The notes: generated from the sequence alone by a model not told the origin. Positions 1 through 11,710 are shown, numbered from the stretch's first letter. The stretch is 45,257 bases of DNA from Methanobacteriota archaeon (GCA_011046235.1 DSAX01000053.1:1-45257); one strand, 5' to 3'. Program-made: numbers and translations.

Positions 1-2163
1 ATCGTATGCGATTCCAGGGGGAATCTCCTGGTCGTTTGGCAGGATTTATATAGCGGACAGTGGGAAATCAAATATGACCGTTTGAATCTATTTGGAACCA
101 TCCTCGACTACGACGAGACGATCAGCTCGGAAATCCTCGGCAACTCTACGGGGCCCTTGGCCCTCATTGGAACACATAACGAGACCATCGTACTGTGGAT
201 CGGAGATATCGGAAATCCAGAGATCTACTTCACCAGAACGCTTCTGCCAGATCTGAGCGTCTCGTCCGGCGATGTATCCCTCAGCACATCCTCAGCGCTC
301 GAGAACACGACTCTTCTCGTCGATGCGATCATCAGAAATCTGGGAGATTCGGAAGCCCAAAATGTGGATGTAAAAGCCGTGGTGAACGGTGAAAGTCGAG
401 CAACGGATACGATCGACTCGCTGGCAGCCGGAGGGATATATGCGGCGACCTTCGAATTCACGGTCATCAAAGGGGACTCGGTCTGCGATATAATCGTGGA
501 CCAGGCTGATCTGATCTACGAATACGATGAGAGCAACAATGCGGCCAATATCGCTTTCTCGACCCTTTACTTCGATTACACGGCCATGGCCAGCGCCTCT
601 TTGCTTTCGATACCTCCCGGCGGTACGATGAACCTCACTCTCGATGTCGACAATGCCGGCAACTATCAGAACTCCGTCATGATCAATATATCCACCGATG
701 ACCTTCCTTCTGACTGGACATTCCAGGTCAGCGGGGGCAATGTCACGAATTTCACGCTCGAGGTCCCGGCTGGAGTTCAGTCATCGGTTCCGATCTCGAT
801 CTCGGTGCCCGACGGAGCGCCGGCCGGTACATGGAACATTCCGATATCCTCCGTCTCTCTGAGCGATCCGAGAATCGGATCGGACTGCGCTATCACGGTC
901 GAAGTGCCGTGGGTTGGAAGGATCGGGCTAATAGTACCGAATCCGGTTCAGCTCATACCCGGCAACTCTCACACCTTCCAGTTCACAGTATATAACCTGG
1001 GCAACCATATCGAATATTTCACTGCAGATGTCGCTGAGAGCAACAACTGGGAAGTATCAATAATCGGCGGGATGGACTTCTCCCTGTCCCCGCTTGAGAC
1101 CTATGTCATCCAGTGCAACGTAAATGTGCCCGAGTTCACGCTCCCGAACACGATGTCGGTCGTTGTAATGAACATCAGCTCGCTGAACCTGACGGGCAAC
1201 TTCATTTCCGGCGGACTGACATCAACAGTGACTGTGCACGAAGAGATATCGATGTATGTGACCTATCAGAACGTCACCCAGGACCAGTTCCAGCTGACCA
1301 GCGGCGCCTTCCAGTTGGAGATAACCAATACGGGCAACATCGGGGAGCAGATCAACGTCACCCTGATAGGTAATCAGACCTCGTTTCTGATAATCGACGA
1401 CAGCCTTTTCGTCCTGTCGCCAGCCAGCTCGAGGACGGTTACCGTCAATCTGACCGCCTCGGCTGATATTCCCGCGGGGAGCTATACCTTCGCTGTGAGG
1501 GCTCAGAGCACCTCAAACAGCCAAATTTTTGCAGAGACATCGCTTCAGTTCTCCATTGAGCCATTCTATGATCTGTACCTCGTTGTCGATCCGTCTCAGG
1601 TGGAAGGTCGTTCCGGATCCGTTTTGGAATCGACCGTCTCCGTATATAATTTCGGAAACGCCGATGACAGATGCACGCTATTCATCGATTACGCCGGTTT
1701 CAATGAGTCAACGGTCACGATCGACGGATTCGTCTACAAGATCGAAACCGACATTCTGCCAGATATAGAGCTTGATGTGGGAGGACATGTCCAGTTCTCA
1801 ATTTCGATCATCACCGAGGGGCGTCCGCCGGACAGGTACGCGGTATTCATCATGGTCGATTCAGCGAACGACCCGAGTGTGTCATCCGATGCTTCCCTTT
1901 TCGTCGTTATAACGCAGAAGCGCTCTCTGATAGATGTAATACTCTCTCCGATTGTGCTCATAGCCATTATCTCCGCGGCGGCGTTCGGGATTTACTTCTT
2001 GCTGATAATGCTCGGGGTCATGCCGGTCCCGAAGATAATAAGAAAGGAGCCGGCGGCTAGGACTTCCAAGGCGAGGGCTTCAGAGAGAACTAGCAGAGAG
2101 GCTCAGGCCCGTAGAGCCCAGCAACCAGGAAGGGCGGCGACCAGACCGGTGCAGAGAAGATAG
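1..2163 (+). CDS. Membrane-anchored cell-surface protein, 5'-truncated by the window edge. It has a CARDB-like domain, repeated all-beta NEW3/COG1470-like modules, a C-terminal TM helix and a basic cytoplasmic tail.
   Basis: Frame 1 is open from base 1 (IVCDSRGNLLVVWQDLYSGQWEIKYDRLNLF...) with no stop before the TTG listed at 82, so the gene continues upstream of the window. CARDB-type signature: NLGDSEAQNVDVKAVVNGE ... YEYDESNNAANIAF. Repeated segments of the type IPPGG..NLTL.V.N.GN and P.GAPAG.W. Hydrophobic stretch ILSPIVLIAIISAAAFGIYFLLIMLGV, followed by an Arg/Lys-rich tail. Confidence 0.8.
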   Translation: MVCDSRGNLLVVWQDLYSGQWEIKYDRLNLFGTILDYDETISSEILGNSTGPLALIGTHNETIVLWIGDIGNPEIYFTRTLLPDLSVSSGDVSLSTSSALENTTLLVDAIIRNLGDSEAQNVDVKAVVNGESRATDTIDSLAAGGIYAATFEFTVIKGDSVCDIIVDQADLIYEYDESNNAANIAFSTLYFDYTAMASASLLSIPPGGTMNLTLDVDNAGNYQNSVMINISTDDLPSDWTFQVSGGNVTNFTLEVPAGVQSSVPISISVPDGAPAGTWNIPISSVSLSDPRIGSDCAITVEVPWVGRIGLIVPNPVQLIPGNSHTFQFTVYNLGNHIEYFTADVAESNNWEVSIIGGMDFSLSPLETYVIQCNVNVPEFTLPNTMSVVVMNISSLNLTGNFISGGLTSTVTVHEEISMYVTYQNVTQDQFQLTSGAFQLEITNTGNIGEQINVTLIGNQTSFLIIDDSLFVLSPASSRTVTVNLTASADIPAGSYTFAVRAQSTSNSQIFAETSLQFSIEPFYDLYLVVDPSQVEGRSGSVLESTVSVYNFGNADDRCTLFIDYAGFNESTVTIDGFVYKIETDILPDIELDVGGHVQFSISIITEGRPPDRYAVFIMVDSANDPSVSSDASLFVVITQKRSLIDVILSPIVLIAIISAAAFGIYFLLIMLGVMPVPKIIRKEPAARTSKARASERTSREAQARRAQQPGRAATRPVQRR

Positions 2164-2220: not shown

Positions 2221-2229
2221 ATTTAATTT
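2221..2229 (+). promoter_or_regulatory. Candidate TATA-like box (ATTTAATTT) upstream of the GTPase gene, followed by an SD-like GGTGAGGAGGT at 2250-2260
   Basis: AT-rich box about 50 nt upstream of the ATG at 2274, with a purine-rich SD-like element 14-24 nt upstream of that ATG. Confidence 0.35.
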
Positions 2230-2273
2230 GCTTCTATCTCATTATCCCCGGTGAGGAGGTCGATCTCCTGAGC

Positions 2274-3098
2274 ATGATCAACTCGAAACACCTGAGAAAG
2301 AAAGTGGTTCTCATCGGTGACAGCGCCGTGGGAAAGACCTCGCTCGTCAGAAGATATGTGATCGATCTTTTTGACGATAAATACATCGCGACGATAGGCA
2401 CCAAAGTGCTCAAGAAGGAGATCGAGTACAAGCTTCCGGCCAGATCGATCTATCTGACCATGATGATCTGGGATATCCTCGGCCAGAGAGATTATCGTAA
2501 TGTCAGAGACACGAGTCTCAAAGGTGCCAACGGGGCCATCATCGTTTCCGATCTTTCCAGACCCGAGACGATTTCCGGCATAGCCGAGTTTTGGGTTCCA
2601 CAGATACAGGATGTCATTGGGAACATATCTATGGTCGTTATCGGAAACAAATGCGACCTCGTGCCAGAAGGCGACAAATCGATCGAACTGCTATCCTCCC
2701 TCTCTTCCGAGCTGTCAAGTCCGTATTTCATATGCAGCGCCAAGAACGGCCAAAATGTCGAGAACGCTTTCAAATCGATCGGAGAACTCGTTCTGAGAGA
2801 CGGGATCGATTCTATTGGCATGGAGGAGACGCAACCCGCGTTTTCGCTCACAAACGCGGTGGATTTCATCATCAGTGACTTCTGTGAGCAGTACGGCGAC
2901 ATCCCGAAAGGGATGGAAATAATCGAGCAGAAATTCTCGAATGCGGGCGTCGATATCAACGCACCGGTAAAGGATGATATCCTCGAGGCATTGGAATTGC
3001 TGGCAGATGTCGAGAAAGACCGTCTCGGAAGAGAAATCTCGGAGATCAACAAGCTGAGAAGATGGAGGAAGCTTGAGGAGACCGAGAGCAGTCAGTGA
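2274..3098 (+). CDS. Ras/Rab-type small GTPase (Ras superfamily) with a roughly 100-aa helical C-terminal extension
   Basis: All five G motifs are present: G1 GDSAVGKT, switch I Thr in IATIGTK, G3 WDILGQ (DxxGQ), G4 GNKCDL (NKxD), G5 CSAKNG (SAK). The G domain ends near residue 170. Residues 170-274 have no motif I recognise. Confidence 0.85.
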   Translation: MINSKHLRKKVVLIGDSAVGKTSLVRRYVIDLFDDKYIATIGTKVLKKEIEYKLPARSIYLTMMIWDILGQRDYRNVRDTSLKGANGAIIVSDLSRPETISGIAEFWVPQIQDVIGNISMVVIGNKCDLVPEGDKSIELLSSLSSELSSPYFICSAKNGQNVENAFKSIGELVLRDGIDSIGMEETQPAFSLTNAVDFIISDFCEQYGDIPKGMEIIEQKFSNAGVDINAPVKDDILEALELLADVEKDRLGREISEINKLRRWRKLEETESSQ

Positions 3099-3112: not shown

Positions 3113-6100
3113 CTACATCCTGATTGGCTTATTCTTGCCCTTGTCCTTCGAGTTATCTAGATAGAAGTTGTTGAACAGGATCTCTATGCCCGCCAGATCT
3201 GTCGCAGAATCCCCGGAGAAGTTCTGTATTCTCTTCCCGTAGATCTTCTGAATCTTGCCCTTGAGATTGTCCAGCTTCTGTTCAAGGTCGTTCGGTGCCG
3301 TTCCGGAGTAGGCGATGGCTAAGTACGAGAAATTGCCCCTGTGGAGGGCGACCGTATAATCCTTGAAATCGAAGTGCTTGATCCCCTTGCTTTTTTGCTC
3401 GAACGCATCGTCTACAAAATCGAGAACAGCGGTGAGCATGCCGCTGAAGATGTCGTCGTCCACCTTGACCGTGTCTCCTTTGGCGTACCGGGCCATCAGC
3501 ATGCCGGTATTGTGAATTAGCATTATGTCCTGAATACTGAACGGACCTTTCATTCGCCGGCTTATTATGACAAATGCCAGTAGCGCTCCCAGTGCGGCGA
3601 TCATTGTAATTATCCACAGGAAGAAGATCTCCTGGGGATTGTCGACTCTCTCCCTCTCAATGACCACGAGCAAAACACAGGAAGTCTCGCCGCCATCCAT
3701 ATCTCTCACGGTGATCGTTACATGTTCTGTGATCGAGTCCGCATCGCCCAAATATTCCTCCGGAAAGTCAAATATCAGATGACCCGAAAAGCCGATGATG
3801 TATTCCGGCATACTTGTACTTATGATGAGCATCTCTATTGGGGTCTCAACATCGTATACATCCTCGCCCAAGCTCAATATCGATTCGACCCCAGCAATCA
3901 CATGTACCTCTCCAATATCTCCGATGACCGGCAGATCGTTTTCGGACAAAACTGTGAGCAAGACGGTTCTCTCGGAGAACGCACCTTCAGAATCGGTAGC
4001 TCTTACGGTCAAGAAGAGCTCCCCGAACCAGTTATCTGTCTGTGTGAAATTGAGACGGGTTCCAGACTGATCCTGCTTGACGGCGATGCTGATGTTCTCT
4101 TCCCAGCAAAACGCAGAATATGCCAAGTCTGGGCCGTCCTCGACATCGTCGAAGAAAAATTCGAGATAGGCCGTTAACGGGTAATCCAGCTCCTCATCCT
4201 CAACGAAGGAATGGTCCGGAAGCCCGATGCAGTATGGCGGATAGTCGGTTCCGACGGTGATCGAGAAGGAGCAGGTCTCCGAGGACCTTCCATCGCTAAC
4301 GACGAGGTTTATCTGATATGAGTTTCCGACCATGTTCTGTGACATCAGAATGGTCATTATGCCATCGGAGAAGCTTATGTTGTCATCCATATTGGTCGAG
4401 AATTCCAGCTCTTCCAAAAGTGTATCCGGATCGAATACATATGGGAATAGGGACAGCGAATATGGTACATTGTACCGGACCACTATGTCCGGTATCTGCC
4501 TGACCTCAGGCGACTGCATCACTCTCAGGACCGTGACATAGATGGTATCTTCGACTCTTGCATTGCTAGGATCAATCGCCCTAAAGGTGATCCTCTCGAC
4601 GCCGTACCAATCCATCGGGGCGAAAAAATCGACCTGTCCCGAGTATTGATATACCACGATGTCGACCTCGACGTTCCCCACTACGAAAAACAGGGTATCG
4701 TCATCCAAATCATCGAAATACTGGAATAGGTTGAAGGCGTTAATCACAGATCCGCCCTGATATAACGTGATATCCGGCAGTTTTTCGAGAATTATCGGGG
4801 GAATGTCGTCCGAGACTAAGACATCAAAAGTCGTGGAACCCTGAAGCTCTCCGTCATCTACGCTTATTTCGAACTCTACCTCGGTTCCATTCAGGCTTTC
4901 AGGCAGAAGGAACGTTCCGATTAGACCATCGAATGTCACATACGCTGCGTTCTCGTTCGTGCAAGTCAAATTGAGCTGGTCTGACGGTGTCTCTACATCC
5001 TGGACATACGGCTCGAAATCGTATTCGTAAGCCATATCGAAGTGTACTGTGAAGTCAATGATCCGCTCGATTTGCGGAGCATCATTGACCGGGATTATTT
5101 CGATGATTAGATTTTGACTCGCCGTCAGTCCTGCCGAGTCCACAACAGTGAATGTGATTTCATCTGTTCCGTACACATTTTCGGGAGCTGTAATCCACAT
5201 ATACCTTGCATTTGTTCTGTTTTCTCCCTGCACGGATATCAGCGACTTGCCAGAAGTGTACCACTTCAGAAGCTCCAGACTATCCTCGCAGTCGTGAATA
5301 TATGGCTCAAGATCGATTATCAGCTCGCCGAAATCCTCTTGAACCGTTTGATCCGGTATCCGTGGAGATATATATGGGGGATCCTCGACCGGTAGTATGA
5401 AAACACTGATATTCTGGCTTACCTCCAGCAAAGTGGAATCTACCAGAGTGAAAGTGATCACATCCGTTCCAAACAGGTTCTCGCCAACGGAGATGTTCAT
5501 TTCCATATTTCCAGTGATGTTCTCCCCTTCTATCGAGATAATGGATTCTCCTGTGACATACCAGGTCAGGGAAGCCTGGATATCGTTCGGATCGTGGATA
5601 TATGGCGTGAGATCGACAGTCCAAGGCAAAGCGTCTTCGTACACGATTTGATCCGGAATTACGGGACTGATATATGGCGGAGCAGGAGTTTCCGAGGTTG
5701 TCTGGTACGATACGCTCATACTGTAGACTTCGGGGGAAGCTCCAGGATCTGCGGCTGTGAGATCGATCCTTATCTTTATCATGCCAGTTGACACATCCGC
5801 CGATCTTATATCTCCTGAGGGTGACGGAACCGGAAACCAGTTTCCCCCGCCGTCCGTCGAGTATCTCAGAACGACCCAGCCTCCATTTTCAACGAAGTCT
5901 GCCCAGCTCCTGTTCCACTCTCTCAAATTATCGGGTGCGACGGCGTCTTCCGTTTCTATGCTCCCTTCAAGAACATACTCGATGCCTCCAGATTTTAGAG
6001 AATGAAGAATCGGCGTACAGGAACCCGTTGCTGTTGTCAAGTTCGCTTTTATCTGGATATATCTGGATATCCTGTCGATTTGAGCAAAGGCCGTGGCATT

Positions 6101-8797
6101 TGAAAATGGGATCTCCATCCATATGGACCAACTCGGATCTTCGACATCGATCGAATTTCCGGTTCGTATGAAAACGGTGATATTTGAATCAGCGACAATT
6201 GTGGAGTTGAGATCAATGAAAGTCCAGTGAGTGCGAGAAAGGAATCCGATTGTTTCCGATACATACTCGCCGCTGCTGGGGTACCTTATCACGTCATACC
6301 CGATATAGAGAAATGGGCGCTGTGAGCTGTTCGAGATTTCGGATGAGAAATACTTTACAATTCCGTCTGAACCTATCCCCGGAATAAGAAATACCGATGG
6401 TGAGTCCAATTGTCCACTATATTGCCATTCTTCTATAGTTTCCGTGATGTCAAAGGTATTCCACCCATTGCCATTGAATGGATTTATAACATATGTTGCC
6501 GTCAGATTGAAGTCGCCTCCGGTCTGATTCCATTCCATGCCATCGGATGCGTGTGTCCAATTGGCCGCGTAAACCGGAAGGTCGTAGTACAACACTTCGC
6601 AGGCCAATTTCGCCGATCCGTCTGGAGAGTTCGATTCGGACAGAGCCTTGCTAAGGCTCGATTCCCTGAAATCCATCCGCCAATCCATCGAGAACCCCGC
6701 GGTATGATAGATCCTCATCGCATTGTCGGACATGGCCAGAATTTCCAGGTTGCAGTCCCCTTCGATGTCTGCGGAAATAATTGCCTTGTCAATCCTCGAG
6801 CCGGTTGAAAACGCCTGGATCTTCCCGATCATCGTTCCGTTTCTATCGATGATGTTGATGGCTCCCTCTCTGTCACCGATGAAGATCTCGAAGATTCCAT
6901 CGCCATCGTAATCCATGAATGATATCGAACCGCGTGATTCATTTGCCAAGTTGCATTCCCAGATAATCGTGGAATCGGTATTTATCGCCAATACCTTCCT
7001 CGGTTCTCTGGCAATGGCAACGATTTCGTTCTCACCGTCATCATCAATATCTGCAACGGCGAGGCCGTCGCCGTATCTTGCGTTAATGTCATCATAGGTC
7101 CACAGAAGCTCACCGTTGCTGCCATTGACAACATGAACCGCTCCCCCGCCCGCGTCTTCGCCAAGGGCTATATCCTCATACTCGTCTCCGAGCATACGTG
7201 CTGCAGCGAAAGAATTTTTGTAGCTAGAAGAGCTCACAGAGGTGTTCTCCCATGCAAGGGTGCCGTTTGAATACAGGAGAGCGATGGCTCCATTATCGCA
7301 TCCTACGGCGATCTCGAGTCCGGATGAATTTTTGAAATCGCCAATGACAATTTGAGCCGGTGTTGCGTCGATATAATTCTCCGGCGTTTGCCAAATTATC
7401 GACCCGTTCATTCCGGAGACTGCGAATATCTTCTTCTTGTCATTTGTGCCAATTATGATCTCCGGTACCCCGTCCTGATCGATATCGCCGACGGCCGGTT
7501 GAGTCATTCCATTGGCATCGATTCCAGCAACACTGCCATCAAAGAGCAACATCCCTTCTGAATCGATGACCTTGAACCCGACGTTTCCGGCTGAATAGAT
7601 TATCTCAGGATAACCATCGAGATTCACATCCGCGATGGTCAGTGAATCCCCGAGATCTTCATCCGTTGAAAAAGGAGCCGCCCAGAGCGGTGTGCCCATG
7701 CTCAATGGGTTTATCTCGGATCCATTATAGGCGATGATGTACCGCGATGCGCGGTCGAATATTATCACGTCCAGGTAACCGTCCATGTTTAAATCCGCAA
7801 TCGCTGGCACGCATTCGGGGTCCGAAACCAATCCTCCGCCCATTACAGATGGCATGTCATCCAAATCTCGATATTCCGGCACATCGGATCTTTCCGCATA
7901 ATATCTCAGCAGGAAAGCTTTCGATTCGAAGGGAGCGCAGGTGACGGGAAAGCCGATTGTGGCGGATTGCAGCGTGCCGTTCAGAGAGGTCTGTATTAGG
8001 AATCGGGAGGCGTGTTCAATGCCATCACTGTACAATATCAGCTGAACATCCGGATCCAATGTTTCGAGTTCCGGCGGAATCGATATATCGACCAGAACCG
8101 GCTCATTGATTCGTGGTGTCCCCTCCGTCTCATTTACAATTATGGTTGCAACCGTATAATCCCAGCCGCCATCTCCTTCGGTCCAATCGGATTCCGATCC
8201 CCGGACCTCGATGGTACCGTTGAGATCGCACACTTCTTTGAAGAAGGACAGGGTCGCGGTGATATTGAACGCATCGCTGGGGATGACCGAAGAAAGGAAG
8301 GCCGAGTCGAGGCGCAAAAGAGCATTGTAATCATATCCGTTCGAATCGCTCCCAATTAGGATGAAGTCGGAACCGCCGTAGTTGATTCCCGGTGTGGAGC
8401 TGGTAATGTATGTGTCCGATATGCGAGATCCGTCCAGAACGACATTGTCTGTCTGTCTTATCGGTTCAATGACAGGTAGAAGCAGGTCTCCCGGCTGAGA
8501 ATCCTTATCGAGACCTGTAAGGCTGCCATTCGAGAAGTCCTGGGATGACGTGATTGTCCGTTCCACTGTGCTGTAGCCGAGCCGCAGAGTGCCATTTTCT
8601 ATTACGGTGTTGTTCAGCGTATAATTTGAGGGATTGCTGAAATCCCATGTGAACGTCCGGTCCAGATCACTGGTCTCCTCCCATAACGGATCAGAAACAG
8701 CTAAAATCGCAAATTGAAATAGTAACTGGGTCATGACGACAACTGAGATGGAGATGATTCTCCAGATTTGTTTCCGATCCCTCCGAACGGCAATCAA
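3113..8797 (-). CDS. Giant (1894 aa) type-I membrane receptor-like surface protein. Order: signal/anchor, DNRLRE-like carbohydrate-binding-type modules, FG-GAP/VCBS beta-propeller, seven cadherin/Ig-like modules, one TM helix, and a 145-aa cytoplasmic alpha/beta domain.
   Basis: Single uninterrupted ORF. The N-terminus is RRDRKQ followed by the hydrophobic IWRIISISVVVMTQLLFQFAILAV. There are seven to eight DxDxDG-type blades. Tandem modules end in VxD/VND-P boundaries. The TM helix is IFFLWIITMIAALGALLAFVIIS followed by RRMK. The start codon is TTG at 8797; an internal ATG (M22) is an alternative. Confidence 0.9.
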   Translation of the reverse strand: MIAVRRDRKQIWRIISISVVVMTQLLFQFAILAVSDPLWEETSDLDRTFTWDFSNPSNYTLNNTVIENGTLRLGYSTVERTITSSQDFSNGSLTGLDKDSQPGDLLLPVIEPIRQTDNVVLDGSRISDTYITSSTPGINYGGSDFILIGSDSNGYDYNALLRLDSAFLSSVIPSDAFNITATLSFFKEVCDLNGTIEVRGSESDWTEGDGGWDYTVATIIVNETEGTPRINEPVLVDISIPPELETLDPDVQLILYSDGIEHASRFLIQTSLNGTLQSATIGFPVTCAPFESKAFLLRYYAERSDVPEYRDLDDMPSVMGGGLVSDPECVPAIADLNMDGYLDVIIFDRASRYIIAYNGSEINPLSMGTPLWAAPFSTDEDLGDSLTIADVNLDGYPEIIYSAGNVGFKVIDSEGMLLFDGSVAGIDANGMTQPAVGDIDQDGVPEIIIGTNDKKKIFAVSGMNGSIIWQTPENYIDATPAQIVIGDFKNSSGLEIAVGCDNGAIALLYSNGTLAWENTSVSSSSYKNSFAAARMLGDEYEDIALGEDAGGGAVHVVNGSNGELLWTYDDINARYGDGLAVADIDDDGENEIVAIAREPRKVLAINTDSTIIWECNLANESRGSISFMDYDGDGIFEIFIGDREGAINIIDRNGTMIGKIQAFSTGSRIDKAIISADIEGDCNLEILAMSDNAMRIYHTAGFSMDWRMDFRESSLSKALSESNSPDGSAKLACEVLYYDLPVYAANWTHASDGMEWNQTGGDFNLTATYVINPFNGNGWNTFDITETIEEWQYSGQLDSPSVFLIPGIGSDGIVKYFSSEISNSSQRPFLYIGYDVIRYPSSGEYVSETIGFLSRTHWTFIDLNSTIVADSNITVFIRTGNSIDVEDPSWSIWMEIPFSNATAFAQIDRISRYIQIKANLTTATGSCTPILHSLKSGGIEYVLEGSIETEDAVAPDNLREWNRSWADFVENGGWVVLRYSTDGGGNWFPVPSPSGDIRSADVSTGMIKIRIDLTAADPGASPEVYSMSVSYQTTSETPAPPYISPVIPDQIVYEDALPWTVDLTPYIHDPNDIQASLTWYVTGESIISIEGENITGNMEMNISVGENLFGTDVITFTLVDSTLLEVSQNISVFILPVEDPPYISPRIPDQTVQEDFGELIIDLEPYIHDCEDSLELLKWYTSGKSLISVQGENRTNARYMWITAPENVYGTDEITFTVVDSAGLTASQNLIIEIIPVNDAPQIERIIDFTVHFDMAYEYDFEPYVQDVETPSDQLNLTCTNENAAYVTFDGLIGTFLLPESLNGTEVEFEISVDDGELQGSTTFDVLVSDDIPPIILEKLPDITLYQGGSVINAFNLFQYFDDLDDDTLFFVVGNVEVDIVVYQYSGQVDFFAPMDWYGVERITFRAIDPSNARVEDTIYVTVLRVMQSPEVRQIPDIVVRYNVPYSLSLFPYVFDPDTLLEELEFSTNMDDNISFSDGIMTILMSQNMVGNSYQINLVVSDGRSSETCSFSITVGTDYPPYCIGLPDHSFVEDEELDYPLTAYLEFFFDDVEDGPDLAYSAFCWEENISIAVKQDQSGTRLNFTQTDNWFGELFLTVRATDSEGAFSERTVLLTVLSENDLPVIGDIGEVHVIAGVESILSLGEDVYDVETPIEMLIISTSMPEYIIGFSGHLIFDFPEEYLGDADSITEHVTITVRDMDGGETSCVLLVVIERERVDNPQEIFFLWIITMIAALGALLAFVIISRRMKGPFSIQDIMLIHNTGMLMARYAKGDTVKVDDDIFSGMLTAVLDFVDDAFEQKSKGIKHFDFKDYTVALHRGNFSYLAIAYSGTAPNDLEQKLDNLKGKIQKIYGKRIQNFSGDSATDLAGIEILFNNFYLDNSKDKGKNKPIRM
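3116..3550 (-). other. Cytoplasmic C-terminal domain of the giant protein, with a longin/roadblock-like alpha/beta pattern
   Basis: The domain follows the TM helix directly. Proposed elements from the residue pattern: IQDIMLIH (beta), MLMARYA (beta), DDDIFSGMLTAVLDFVDDAF (amphipathic helix), IKHFDFKDYTVALHRG (beta hairpin), SYLAIAYSG (beta), NDLEQKLDNLKGKIQKIYGKRI (helix). The fold assignment is inferred from this pattern only. Confidence 0.45.
3629..5680 (-). repeat. Seven tandem 90-102-aa cadherin/Ig-like modules (about aa 1040-1723) inside the giant CDS
   Basis: Modules begin PPYISPVIPDQ, PPYISPRIPDQ, APQIERIIDF, PPIILEKLPD, PEVRQIPDIV, PPYCIGLPDH and LPVIGDIGEV. Each has a (Y/F)(I/V)xD(P/V/C)(D/E) acidic loop about 25 residues in and ends with a V..V(x)D/ND boundary. 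Confidence 0.7.
6698..7825 (-). other. FG-GAP/VCBS (integrin-alpha-like) beta-propeller region of the giant protein (about aa 325-700)
   Basis: Repeated Ca-binding-type loops: ADLNMDGYLDVII, ADVNLDGYPEIIY, GDIDQDGVPEIIIG, GDFKNSSGLEIAV, ADIDDDGENEIVA, MDYDGDGIFEIFIG, ADIEGDCNLEILA. They are interleaved with G..(I/L)W strands (NGSIIWQ, NGTLAWEN, NGELLWTY, DSTIIWEC). Coordinates were verified by back-translating LNMDG at 7778-7792. Confidence 0.75.
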
Positions 8798-9017: not shown

Positions 9018-9632
9018 TTGGCTACAACCATGAAAAAGCGGACGCTTGAAATAAAGCTGGCCAAGCTCGAGGTGCCGGAATCTCCCAAGGCAGATCTCGA
9101 GCAGTACACAACACCCGCGGACGTCGCATCCGATCTCCTCTGGACCGCCCTTTCATTCGGGGATATCCAGGGAAGGAAGATAGCCGACCTGGGCTGCGGG
9201 AACGGCATACTGGGCATCGGAGCGTATCTCCTGGGAGCCGAGGAGGTCACATGCTATGATGTCGACCCCGGCATGGTCGAGCTCGCGAAAAGGAATGCCG
9301 CCTCGATCTCGGCCAATATCATTGGGGTCTGCTCCGATGCGGAATCCATCAGTGAGAGATATCAAACGGTCGTCCAGAACCCGCCTTTCGGAGCGCAGAG
9401 AAGTGCCGCTGACAGGCCGTTCCTCCGGACGGCGATACGAATCTCAGAGGTGGCATACTCGCTTCACATGGCGGAAACGACCGGCTTCGTTGCAAAATTC
9501 TGCAACTCGATCGGAGCGGAAGTTCAGCACATCAAAAGTTATAAGTTCAAGATACCGTTCATGTTCGAATTTCACAGCAAGCCAGAGGATTTCGTGGATG
9601 TTGCATTGCTGAGAATAAAAACCAGAGGGTGA
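9018..9632 (+). CDS. COG2263/METTL5-like RNA (N6-adenine-type) methyltransferase
   Basis: SAM motif I DLGCGNGILGIGA, acidic motif II CYDVD, catalytic NPPFG. It lies directly upstream of csl4, a pairing known from archaeal exosome-linked neighbourhoods. The listed start is TTG at 9018; an ATG at 9030 is an alternative. Confidence 0.8.
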   Translation: MATTMKKRTLEIKLAKLEVPESPKADLEQYTTPADVASDLLWTALSFGDIQGRKIADLGCGNGILGIGAYLLGAEEVTCYDVDPGMVELAKRNAASISANIIGVCSDAESISERYQTVVQNPPFGAQRSAADRPFLRTAIRISEVAYSLHMAETTGFVAKFCNSIGAEVQHIKSYKFKIPFMFEFHSKPEDFVDVALLRIKTRG

Positions 9633-9638
9633 AACCTC

Positions 9639-10211
9639 TTGACAGAAAAAAAGGAATCAAAGAAGGTCCTCCCAGGTGAGCTTGTGGCTACCGCCGAGGA
9701 GTATATGCCAGGTTTCGGAACCTTCGAGGACGACGGGAACATCTACTCCACTGCCATTGGATCGCTTTACCTCGACGAAGGGAACAAGATCGCCAGACTC
9801 GATTTCAAGAATCCACCTCTCGTCGCGTTCGACGAGGATGTGGTATTCTGCGAGGTGACAGACGTTAAGCCATCCATGGTCGTCTGCAGGATCCAGGCGA
9901 TGGAGGGCACCAGCAGAGGCATCACCGGGGAAACGATGGGAACCCTTCATGTGAGCAAGATCTCAAACCGGTATGTCGAGGACGCCTCGGAAAAATTCAG
10001 AATCACAGATATAATTAGGGCGGAGGTTATCCAGAGCCGGCCTTCGATTCAGCTGACGACCGCGAAGCCGCACCTGGGGGTCATAATGGCCAGATGCAAT
10101 TCCTGCCGGGAACCGCTCGACAGGAAGGGCAACAAGCTGTACTGCGAGAGCTGCGAGAGGACCGAATATCGTAAACTCGCGAAAGATTACCGCGATGTCA
10201 AGCCCTGTTAG
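9639..10211 (+). CDS. csl4: Exosome complex RNA-binding subunit Csl4 (N-terminal domain, S1 domain, C-terminal zinc ribbon)
   Basis: N-terminal LPGELVATAEEYMPGFGTFEDDGNIYS, a central S1-like block (VVFCEVTDVKPSMVVCRI ... GTLHVSKISNRYV), and a C-terminal CNSC...CESC zinc ribbon. The size of about 190 aa is typical for archaeal Csl4. Confidence 0.85.
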   Translation: MTEKKESKKVLPGELVATAEEYMPGFGTFEDDGNIYSTAIGSLYLDEGNKIARLDFKNPPLVAFDEDVVFCEVTDVKPSMVVCRIQAMEGTSRGITGETMGTLHVSKISNRYVEDASEKFRITDIIRAEVIQSRPSIQLTTAKPHLGVIMARCNSCREPLDRKGNKLYCESCERTEYRKLAKDYRDVKPC

Positions 10212-10269
10212 GTGCAAAAGAGATAAATCACCGGTCCAAGATAAGCAAATACGGGAAAAGAGGCGTTTG

Positions 10270-10449
10270 ATGTATTCTGATGCAGAAGAGATGGTCAGGG
10301 AGATCAAAAAGCTTCGGGAGGAGCTCAACCAGATGCGAGAGATCGTGAACATGCTCCTCAATGTGGTTATGGAAGAATCGGAGGAGGATGAGTTCGAACA
10401 AGCTCTCCTTCAGGACGACTCGGCGAAGCGATTCAACCTGTACAACTGA
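10270..10449 (+). CDS. Hypothetical small acidic coiled-coil protein (59 aa if started at the internal ATG)
   Basis: Part of listed ORF 10195..10449. The ATG at 10270 gives MYSDAEEMVREIKKLREELNQMREIVNMLLNVVMEESEEDEFE..., which has heptad character. No family recognised. Confidence 0.35.
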   Translation: MYSDAEEMVREIKKLREELNQMREIVNMLLNVVMEESEEDEFEQALLQDDSAKRFNLYN

Positions 10450-10569
10450 AGCTGTCAAGCAAAGAACTACGGCGGGCGTCGCTAATTATTCAGTCTATTG
10501 CCGAATCAGATTCCTGGGAGACAGGTCTAAGTCCGAATTCAGCTATCACGCCACTGCGGAGGCACGAGC

Positions 10570-11226
10570 ATGGACCGTATGAAACTGGTGCTGCTTCTCT
10601 CAGGAGGCATTGATTCCCCTGTCGCGGGCTATTTGATGGGCAGACAGCGAGCTGAAATCATCGCTCTTTCCGGATTCGTGAGCTCCGGAAACGAGGAAGC
10701 CCATGTTCGTAAAATGACTGCCCTCGCAGGCAAGATCGCCGTGTCCATCGGGCATGAGGTGTCACTTCATGTATATGATCAGAGTCTCGCCCTCGACTGT
10801 TTCAGAGACGGAATGAGGCCGAACCTTACGTGCGTGCTGTGCAAGCGCGCAATGCTCAGGATGGCTGAGAAGCTTTGTAAGATGACCGACAGCTCTGCGA
10901 TTATAACCGGGGACTCCCTCGGGCAGGTCGCGTCGCAGACACTGCGGAATATCGCCGTTATCGAAAACGCAGTCGCGACGCCGATCCTGCGGCCGCTGAT
11001 CGGTTTAGATAAGATGGACATCGTTCGGATTGCGCGGAACATCGGCACATACGGCACATCGATTGCCTCCGGAGCGCCATCATGCGAATTCGTTCCAAAG
11101 CACCCAGCAACGAGGTCGCTGATCGAGGAAGTACTGGAGGAGGAGATGAGGGTCGGGATCGAAGGGATAATGGACGAAATGGCCAGCACACTGAGGGTGA
11201 TCGAGCATGAAAGATTCAACGAATGA
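10570..11226 (+). CDS. ThiI-like PP-loop ATP pyrophosphatase (tRNA 4-thiouridine/thiazole sulfurtransferase catalytic domain only, without THUMP or rhodanese domains)
   Basis: PP-loop LLLSGGIDSPVA, plus ThiI signatures GDSLGQVASQTL and ILRPLIGLDKMDIV. Three Cys residues are placed as in Fe-S-type archaeal ThiI (CVLC and SCEF). At 218 aa it is too short to hold the N-terminal ferredoxin-like and THUMP module. Confidence 0.75.
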   Translation: MDRMKLVLLLSGGIDSPVAGYLMGRQRAEIIALSGFVSSGNEEAHVRKMTALAGKIAVSIGHEVSLHVYDQSLALDCFRDGMRPNLTCVLCKRAMLRMAEKLCKMTDSSAIITGDSLGQVASQTLRNIAVIENAVATPILRPLIGLDKMDIVRIARNIGTYGTSIASGAPSCEFVPKHPATRSLIEEVLEEEMRVGIEGIMDEMASTLRVIEHERFNE

Positions 11227-11710
11227 GGCTAAAAAGACGCTTGTGGCCGATACTTCGGCCCTCTTCAACGCGTCCGATTTTCCGGCCCACTTCGATATAG
11301 TCGTCCCGCCAGGAGTAGTGGAAGAGCTTAGAAGATGGGGCATGGATCGGCGATTGGATATGCTTCTGGCCTCTAGAATCGAAGTCCGAATTCCGTTGAA
11401 CGGCTCGCTCGAAAAAGCCCGCAAAGCCTCCGAGGCGACAGGGGACATAGGCAGACTGTCAGATACCGACATCTCCGTCGTCGCCCTGGCGATCGAGCTC
11501 GAGGCGCCCGCCATCACGGATGACTACTCGATTCAGAACGTGATTAAATCGCTCGGTGGGAAGTTCCTCACGATGGAGAAGATCGGGATCAGGGATGTAT
11601 TTACTTGGGAGTTCCGATGCTCCGGCTGCGGCAAACTATTCAAAGAGAAAATCGATGAATGCGATGTCTGCGGGCACAGGCTGCGGTCCTGGCGCGCCAG
11701 GAAAAAATGA
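11207..11710 (+). CDS. nob1: Nob1-type endoribonuclease (PIN domain plus C-terminal zinc ribbon), 16S rRNA 3'-end maturation
   Basis: PIN acidic residues in LVADTSALF and LSDTDISVVALAIEL. C-terminal CSGC...CDVC ribbon. The size of about 167 aa and this architecture match archaeal Nob1. It overlaps the ThiI-like gene by 20 nt. Confidence 0.8.
   Translation: MKDSTNEAKKTLVADTSALFNASDFPAHFDIVVPPGVVEELRRWGMDRRLDMLLASRIEVRIPLNGSLEKARKASEATGDIGRLSDTDISVVALAIELEAPAITDDYSIQNVIKSLGGKFLTMEKIGIRDVFTWEFRCSGCGKLFKEKIDECDVCGHRLRSWRARKK

Follow-up and report, generated by a model that had tools for sequence, protein, structure and literature searches.

Small GTPases of the Ras/Rab type outside eukaryotes and Asgard archaea are, to our knowledge, orphans for the most part: neither partners nor a route to the membrane are known. 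One such protein, here designated GTPase1, is encoded in a DNA stretch of 45,257 nucleotides from an uncultured Thermoplasmata archaeon (GCA_011046235.1, DSAX01000053.1:1-45257); this whole stretch is referred to below as the window. The G domain of GTPase1 is followed by a conserved C-terminal domain (CTD), and the genes that recur beside it or beside its relatives encode a coiled-coil protein, designated X, or membrane proteins with a cytoplasmic domain, designated Y.

By analogy, the closest parallel of this set is the bacterial Group 1 Rup neighbourhood, which in the study of Wuichet and Sogaard-Andersen (2014, PMC4316618) is described as containing a GTPase without the G3 glutamine, an uncharacterised cytoplasmic coiled-coil protein, a membrane protein combining an unnamed conserved cytoplasmic domain with OmpA, and a signalling output. 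GTPase1 is likewise a Ras-like, non-MglA GTPase and has analogous candidate partners, a coiled-coil protein (X) and a membrane protein with an unnamed domain (Y), and Y resembles bacterial OmpA-family proteins, at the predicted-structure level only. Unlike the Group 1 Rup GTPases as described there, GTPase1 keeps Gln71 and possesses the CTD; in place of the Y-transmembrane-OmpA arrangement the partner is a giant extracellular protein with a C-terminal Y; and no histidine kinase or GGDEF/EAL output gene is present at the GTPase1 locus, none being found among the called genes of the window and five related loci.

These associations of GTPase, X and Y genes suggest an undescribed membrane signalling set, and the reading of GTPase1 as a working Ras-superfamily switch of the CTD subfamily, placed in a membrane-proximal signalling set with Y proteins and X, is held here with somewhat more confidence than doubt. 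The family offers three testable partners: a domain of four helices fused to the GTPase, a protein with coiled coils, and, on giant receptors resembling adhesins, a longin-like domain tethered to the membrane; all three candidates are conserved throughout one order of Thermoplasmata. If these partners do interact with the GTPase, receptor-coupled small-GTPase signalling exists in Euryarchaeota-type archaea, and work on the mechanism of the bacterial Group 1 Rup systems, which are uncharacterised, could draw on an archaeal sister system. No paper was found on this CTD, on protein X, or on GTPase-archaellum links in Thermoplasmata; the new elements are the CTD as a defined domain, X with its archaellum-linked paralogue, the operon of Y and a second GTPase (GTPase2), and the adjacency of CTD-GTPases and Y-tailed giants in distant genomes.

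Several other described systems share single features with this locus. According to Surkont and Pereira-Leal (2016, PMC4915359) archaeal Rab-like proteins have a shorter C-terminus than Rabs. GTPase1 has in common with these proteins and with the Thorarchaeota Rab (PDB 7ezb) a Rab-like G domain without prenylatable cysteines, and its family, like the archaeal Rab-like GTPases, occurs outside Asgard archaea, Thermoplasmatales-type genomes included, but it differs from them by the folded domain of ~90 aa at the C-terminus. With the eukaryotic longin-Rab platforms (Mon1-Ccz1, Fuzzy-Inturned, and HPS1-HPS4) and the Roadblock regulators (MglB and Ragulator) the locus shares a small alpha/beta domain encoded with a Ras-like GTPase and presumed to dock it; unlike the longin-Rab platforms, Y is membrane-tethered as the tail of a surface protein, its longin match is sub-threshold, and a role as guanine nucleotide exchange factor (GEF) or GTPase-activating protein (GAP) may be proposed for it by analogy. 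Rag/Gtr (roadblock CRD) and Roco (Roc-COR) proteins likewise have a folded domain immediately after the G domain; in GTPase1, unlike in them, this domain is all-helical, about 90 aa long, and gives no Pfam COR or roadblock signal and no match among PDB sequences.

The identity of the G domain was established from motifs, profile scores, and predicted fold. All five motifs listed in a first-pass annotation of the window were found, namely GDSAVGKT at residues 15-22, ATIGT with T40, DILGQ at 67-71 with Asp67 and Gln71, NKCD at 125-128, and SAK at 155-157, and Gln71 is invariant across 45 aligned homologues. The score against Pfam Ras (PF00071) was 121.3 bits over residues 10-173 (E 3.7e-35; cut-off 21.6), followed by Roc with 89.8 bits (E 2e-25) and by Arf with just 30.6 bits (E 2.8e-07); TIGR00231 gave 61.4 bits with a cut-off of 42.5, and the top PDB sequence matches were all Rab/Ypt proteins plus the Thorarchaeota Rab. 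By its five motifs, its scores over curated cut-offs, and its G-domain fold GTPase1 belongs to the Ras superfamily. The first-pass assignment to the Ras/Rab-like rather than the MglA type is borne out by the Pfam, TIGR00231, and PDB matches and by Asp67, and in the hidden Markov model search that it had proposed the best placement did not fall among translation factors or Era/Obg-type GTPases, the Era, Obg, and RsgA models scoring far under their cut-offs.

As regards Rab, the label "canonical Ras/Rab-type" of the same annotation was overstated. In the alignment with Rab1A the five RabF motifs are preserved just in part: IGTKV stands for IGVDF, MMIWDILGQR for KLQIWDTAGQE, YRNV for RFRxIT, KGANG for YRGAHG, and IVSDLS for VVYDVT. 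The annotated lack of a prenylation (CaaX) signal agrees with the C-terminus ...RKLEETESSQ, since no Cys occurs in the last 70 residues. Because the RabF motifs are only partly kept and the prenylation cysteine is missing, strict Rab membership is not established, and GTPase1 is best described, as far as its sequence goes, as Rab-like by best matches and Rup-like in the prokaryotic classification.

MglA proteins have a divergent G3 without the conserved Asp and are paired with an mglB (Roadblock) gene. This family was rejected for GTPase1, its G3 being DILGQ with Asp67 and the two Robl_LC7 genes of the genome lying on other contigs. These two Roadblock/LC7 genes (G000 C55:3663-3917 and C19:2298-2555) are distant from any Ras-family gene, and one of them is located within an open frame of 262 codons, where a fusion to another domain is possible. 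Another candidate type is represented by the small GTPases that drive extracellular vesicle formation in Haloferax, where ArvA, an Arf-like protein with an amphipathic helix at its N-terminus, is encoded next to ArvB (DUF2073) and ArvC (DUF2072) (PMC10927574). A vesicle-forming or membrane-deforming activity of this ArvA/Arf kind is nevertheless very hard to credit for GTPase1, in view of the gap between the Arf and Ras scores given above, its short N-terminus, and the lack of arvB and arvC downstream or elsewhere at the locus.

The second line of evidence is the CTD, which sits where eukaryotic Rabs have the lipidated tail. More than 750 homologues of GTPase1 were found, and the best 120 of them cover 88-100% of its length with 48-87% identity; their database names, if any, are "Rab family GTPase" or "GTP-binding protein" of metagenome-assembled genomes of Thermoplasmata/Thermoplasmatota. 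The last 90 residues are conserved as strongly as the G domain, could be aligned at full length in 45 homologues, and include 14 invariant positions (D197, D202, F203, Q206, P231, E241, E247, D249, G252, E257, N259, K260, R263, and W264). In the AlphaFold2 model (mean predicted local distance difference test score, pLDDT, 81.5; predicted TM-score, pTM, 0.63) the G domain is followed by a disordered linker (residues 179-189, pLDDT <50) and by four helices at 192-207, 210-224, 233-251, and 253-273 with pLDDT 85-93.

The helical nature foreseen for the extension in the first-pass annotation is thus reproduced by the model, and the remark that it resembles no known motif also stands: no Pfam family was detected on residues 180-274 even at E up to 10, the CTD profile search of PDB sequences gave no match, and no match of the whole model to PDB structures reaches past residue 188. 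On these grounds Roco (Roc-COR) was rejected as an identity for GTPase1, no Roco chain in PDB being matched by the CTD profile, and Rag/Gtr was rejected because the CTD consists of four helices with no strands, where a roadblock domain would be expected. The look-alikes of the CTD in the ESM Atlas (TM 0.57-0.79) were members of its own family, short stand-alone proteins, DUF8082, and helical parts of PAS/histidine-kinase proteins, which at the level of predicted models is a generic four-helix resemblance only; a relationship with the domain at the N-terminus of output proteins associated with Rup is no more than a lead.

When 1.84 billion cluster representatives were searched exhaustively with the CTD profile, 110 clusters were returned. 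All matched proteins longer than ~255 aa, except P0221 (426 aa), have a G domain in front of it, and the short matches are mostly fragments that start inside a G domain, while a handful of proteins with 69-110 aa possibly represent the CTD on its own. As judged from these matches, the CTD defines a GTPase subfamily of Thermoplasmatota. Its distribution was surveyed in 49 species genomes of the order to which the window belongs and in an even sample of 401 genomes of the phylum. The profile matches 48 of the 49 order genomes, nearly all of which hold an orthologue with E about 1e-46 and a second paralogue with E about 1e-21, and the family of the window has 3-4 copies per genome; the window genome itself contains six Ras-family genes, three of them with the CTD. 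In the phylum sample only 9 of 401 genomes were positive, and seven of these are large (2.8-5.5 Mb), belong to other families, and carry 2-7 copies each. The extension, annotated at first as unexplained, is no peculiarity of one locus but a conserved domain of the order and of other lineages of the phylum. In an internal tree from a quick, unfinished search the three CTD paralogues of the window genome and their orthologues cluster (SH-aLRT 96), with little else resolved.

The third line of evidence concerns domain Y and the surface proteins that carry it. At the locus of paralogue 2 (contig C4) an open reading frame (ORF) of 195 aa (L006:2103-2690, minus strand), with two transmembrane helices and a cytoplasmic Y domain of about 130 aa, overlaps the start of GTPase2 (L006:1201-2103, minus strand), and this Y-then-GTPase2 pair is adjacent in at least 43 of the 49 order genomes. 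Giant proteins of 1400-1800 aa, of which there are 2-4 per genome, end in C-terminal tails homologous to Y. They include the giant encoded convergently to GTPase1 in the window, whose Y domain comprises roughly 125 aa and where an aligned match at 3191-3535 of the minus strand (E 5e-11) directly follows the transmembrane helix, as well as the neighbour of the GTPase in a relative with 59% identity. A further Ras-family protein, GTPase3 (about 190 aa, no CTD), is encoded directly upstream of a Y-tailed giant of ~1415 aa, on the same strand, in 6 of 6 genomes checked; in the window genome it lies on contig C83 (4932-5432, minus strand), with the Y tail of a 1424-aa surface protein at 671-1021 (minus strand).

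In five distant genomes of the phylum, which have 5-16 Y-tailed giants each, a CTD-GTPase was found within about 2.5 kb of such a giant at 5 of the 14 assessable loci (G190:C25, G190:C159, G094:C180, G150 at 2.639-2.641 Mb, and G156:C7), where, by a rough estimate of our own, clearly less than one would be expected by chance. Since its tail carries Y, the recurrent companion of such GTPases, the giant gene is a meaningful neighbour of GTPase1, and the first-pass proposal that membrane recruitment would need a protein partner becomes plausible, the recurrent domain being located in the cytoplasmic tail of the giant. Among Pfam families only the first longin domain of Fuz/Mon1/HPS1 recurred as a signal in Y, in 11 of 28 members with a best E of 1.9e-4 and always below threshold; the tail of the window giant gave 17.4 bits (E 0.0054) against Fuz_longin_1 (PF19036), for which the cut-off is 26.1, and a Robl_LC7 signal appeared in 2 of 28 members. 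The Y profile yielded noise only against PDB, and its look-alikes in the Atlas were Thermoplasmatota surface proteins, a response-regulator fusion, and large bacterial OmpA-family proteins.

The fourth line of evidence is protein X, a coiled-coil protein of 350-400 aa without a known family, all database relatives of which are "hypothetical" Thermoplasmata proteins. It is 384 aa long in the window genome (contig C22; L018:1081-2235, minus strand) and present in 49 of 49 order genomes as two or three paralogous types. When coordinates of X matches were compared with those of CTD matches in the order genomes, the orthologue was present in 43 genomes of the sister family, and in 40 of these the best X copy (X1) lay divergently at a distance of about 1 kb from the CTD match; two of the other three are at contig ends and G427 is a true exception. 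In that closed genome the orthologue (G427:C1:851416-851664) occupies an open frame of just 182 codons, is not beside X1, and may be a decaying copy.

Of the 18 order genomes with flagellins, 16 have the second type (X2) in divergent orientation about 1.6 kb upstream of the flagellin cluster, and in the window's family one X gene lies beside archaellum genes (the operon or a FlaC/D/E remnant) in a cluster that extends to the GTPase. Such an arrangement is what would be expected if the switch controlled the archaellum or the organisation of the cell pole or surface via X-type proteins, like MglA with SgmX/RomR (type IV pili) or like FlhF (bacterial flagella). This explanation, which overlaps with the signalling set preferred here but names a specific output, is considered unlikely. 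Flagellins occur in only 18 of 49 order genomes; the X1-GTPase pair is kept in 19 of 19 genomes of one genus, where 18 have no flagellin match and the 19th has a contig-end fragment; and in flagellated genomes of the sister family the GTPase and archaellum loci are hundreds of kb apart. An output towards the archaellum may exist but is unproven, as the pairing of X1 with the GTPase persists in non-flagellated members of the order.

The model of X (pLDDT 77) consists of an N-terminal alpha-beta-beta-beta-alpha-beta domain followed by long helices, and fold searches gave nothing decisive. A predicted complex of GTPase1 and X gave no answer (ipSAE 0.00), which speaks neither for nor against binding. 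Weak Atlas matches of the N-terminal domain were to SduA_C/Eco57I-type (restriction-endonuclease-like) proteins; the acidic residue E73 of FERADK, conserved in the sister family, is replaced by Gln in the window's family. Two X copies contain in-frame stops (G403:C21:52424-53492 and G410:C58:128008-128796), TGA in the archaellum-linked and TAG in the GTPase-linked copy, and may be pseudogenes or sequencing errors.

The features of the window around GTPase1 are collected in Table 1.

Table 1. Position of GTPase1, its domains, and neighbouring features in the window.
Feature	Position	Strand	Basis or remark
CARDB/NPCBM_assoc surface protein gene, 3' part	1..2163	+	Pfam; gene continues from contig C22
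A/T-rich TATA-like TTTAATTT	2222-2229	+	Read directly from sequence
Shine-Dalgarno-like GGTGAGGAGG	2250-2259	+	Read directly from sequence; 14 nt 5' of GTPase1 ATG
GTPase1 gene (P0001), Ras/Rab-like small GTPase with C-terminal domain	2274..3098	+	ORF and translation; ATG start, 274 aa
G domain, intact G1-G5 motifs	2301..2792	+	Residues 10-173, Asp67 and Gln71 included
CTD, conserved four-helix C-terminal domain	2829..3095	+	Residues 186-274
Convergent 1894-aa surface protein with FG-GAP, Big_9, and cadherin-like modules	3113..8797	-	Pfam
Cytoplasmic tail of the giant with Y domain	3116..3559	-	Homologous to small membrane protein Y
Single transmembrane helix of the giant, IFFLWIITMIAALGALLAFVIIS	3560..3628	-	Translation; judged by eye from hydrophobicity
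MTS-type methyltransferase	9018-9632	+	Pfam
Csl4	9639-10211	+	Pfam

The coordinates agree with the earlier statements that the 274-aa ORF begins 110 nt downstream of a surface protein gene, which stops at 2163, and that its stop codon is separated by 14 nt from that of the convergent 1894-aa gene. The end of contig C22 carries the start of the CARDB gene, with an archaellum operon upstream of it, and this contig evidently joins the start of the window. The order CARDB, GTPase, convergent giant, methyltransferase, and Csl4 is common to the window and to a relative whose GTPase is 87% identical, in which the archaellum operon (flagellins, FlaH, two FlaI-type ATPases, and FlaJ) lies directly upstream of this layout. 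The 59%-identical relative keeps the row of GTPase, convergent giant gene (2002 aa), and methyltransferase, with just a FlaC/D/E gene upstream. The convergent giant is orthologous among these three genomes. Three relatives with 49-52% identity, all of the sister family (L009, L010, and L011), have neither a giant gene nor an archaellum gene at the GTPase locus; a divergent gene for a protein of 380-393 aa without a Pfam family lies upstream (called as two pieces of 174 and 223 aa in one of them). The expectation that neighbours would be kept in relatives accordingly holds within the window's own family for CARDB and the giant and fails in the sister family, which has X and the methyltransferase-Csl4 row instead; the CARDB neighbour is not conserved beyond the family of the window.

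In the same three sister-family loci the row begins 15-60 nt after the GTPase on the same strand and includes genes for methyltransferase, Csl4, a 59-aa ORF, SHMT, ThiF, ThiI, and a PIN_6 protein, and the same methyltransferase-Csl4 row occupies 9018-11710 in the window. These facts would fit a housekeeping GTPase that shares a transcript with the methyltransferase-Csl4-...-ThiI-Nob1 row and is tied to ribosome maturation or RNA processing. Such a role is improbable, however, as a 5.7-kb gene on the opposite strand separates the GTPase from the row in the window's family, the protein is Ras/Rab-like with the Era, Obg, and RsgA scores reported above, and paralogues and distant relatives pair with membrane proteins.

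The variability of these surroundings may also be read as historical accident, with GTPase1 as a free-standing switch and the CTD serving for self-association only. The locus is an insertion hot spot, around which archaellum genes, the CARDB gene, and the giant gene have landed, and the generic four-helix character of the CTD look-alikes would suit such a view. Three independent order-wide pairings of Ras-like GTPases with X or Y proteins and the recurrence of pairings in distant genomes argue against it, and this explanation is rated as quite improbable, slightly below the housekeeping role.

Returning to the membrane-proximal signalling set, the analysis demonstrates the gene with its motifs and fold, a conserved CTD, and recurrent associations with other genes; from these we infer physical interactions, a direction of signalling, and an output. 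GTPase1 would switch between GTP and GDP states and have two kinds of partner. The first kind would be membrane proteins with a cytoplasmic Y domain, represented in the window by the tail of the convergent giant, which would dock GTPase1 at the membrane and would probably control whether GTP or GDP is bound, acting as an exchange factor or a GAP platform. The second kind would be the coiled-coil protein X, the order-wide divergent neighbour of the GTPase1 orthologue. The CTD would bind a partner or effector or dimerise the switch.

Several facts weigh against this proposal. In the sister family, which makes up most of the order, the GTPase1 orthologue adjoins no Y-tailed giant, and therefore the link between GTPase1 and the giant rests on the window's family and on analogy with paralogues and distant relatives. 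The GTPase most tightly paired with a Y receptor, GTPase3, has no CTD; therefore the presence of the CTD is not accounted for by the pairing with Y. The five distant CTD-bearing genomes gave no match to X, and therefore binding of X cannot be an obligate role of the CTD. How the CTD is oriented relative to the G domain is uncertain in the predicted model, Y can be called longin-like (or roadblock-like) from a sub-threshold match, and the interactions of GTPase1 with its partners are inferred from gene context.

A more far-reaching version of the proposal, which we regard as speculative and rather doubtful, would join CTD-GTPases, Y-tailed giants with an FG-GAP propeller and cadherin-like repeats, and X into an outside-in system acting on the archaellum or cell surface. 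The longin-like tail of an adhesion receptor at the surface would dock a Rab-like GTPase and switch it, and the GTPase would act, via the CTD and X-type scaffolds, on the archaellum or on cell-surface organisation. Such a system would be a counterpart, in prokaryotes, of integrin-to-small-GTPase signalling and, outside Asgard archaea, an evolutionary link between bacterial Group 1 Rup and eukaryotic longin-Rab systems.

Some minor observations concern gene expression and gene calls. Since the TATA-like TTTAATTT and the Shine-Dalgarno-like GGTGAGGAGG precede the ATG, the GTPase1 gene probably has its own expression signals. In two orthologues from one genus of the sister family (L037:2219-2230 and L044) CTG AGC ATA ATC stands, at the conserved N-terminus, in place of CTG AGC ATG ATC of the window, and no ATG, GTG, or TTG precedes the P-loop in a frame that is otherwise open; therefore a non-canonical start codon (CTG or ATA) may be used there. 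The archaellum cluster of contig C22 (L018:3980-19147) contains two tandem genes for FlaI-type ATPases (545 and 542 aa), two genes for KaiC/FlaH-like proteins (261 and 235 aa), a gene for a protein of 630 aa whose N-terminus is that of a flagellin, and an ORF of 399 aa without a Pfam family. In the window the gap between Csl4 and ThiI (10212-10569) has a size that fits the ORF of 58-60 aa, without a Pfam family, which is called after Csl4 in relatives.
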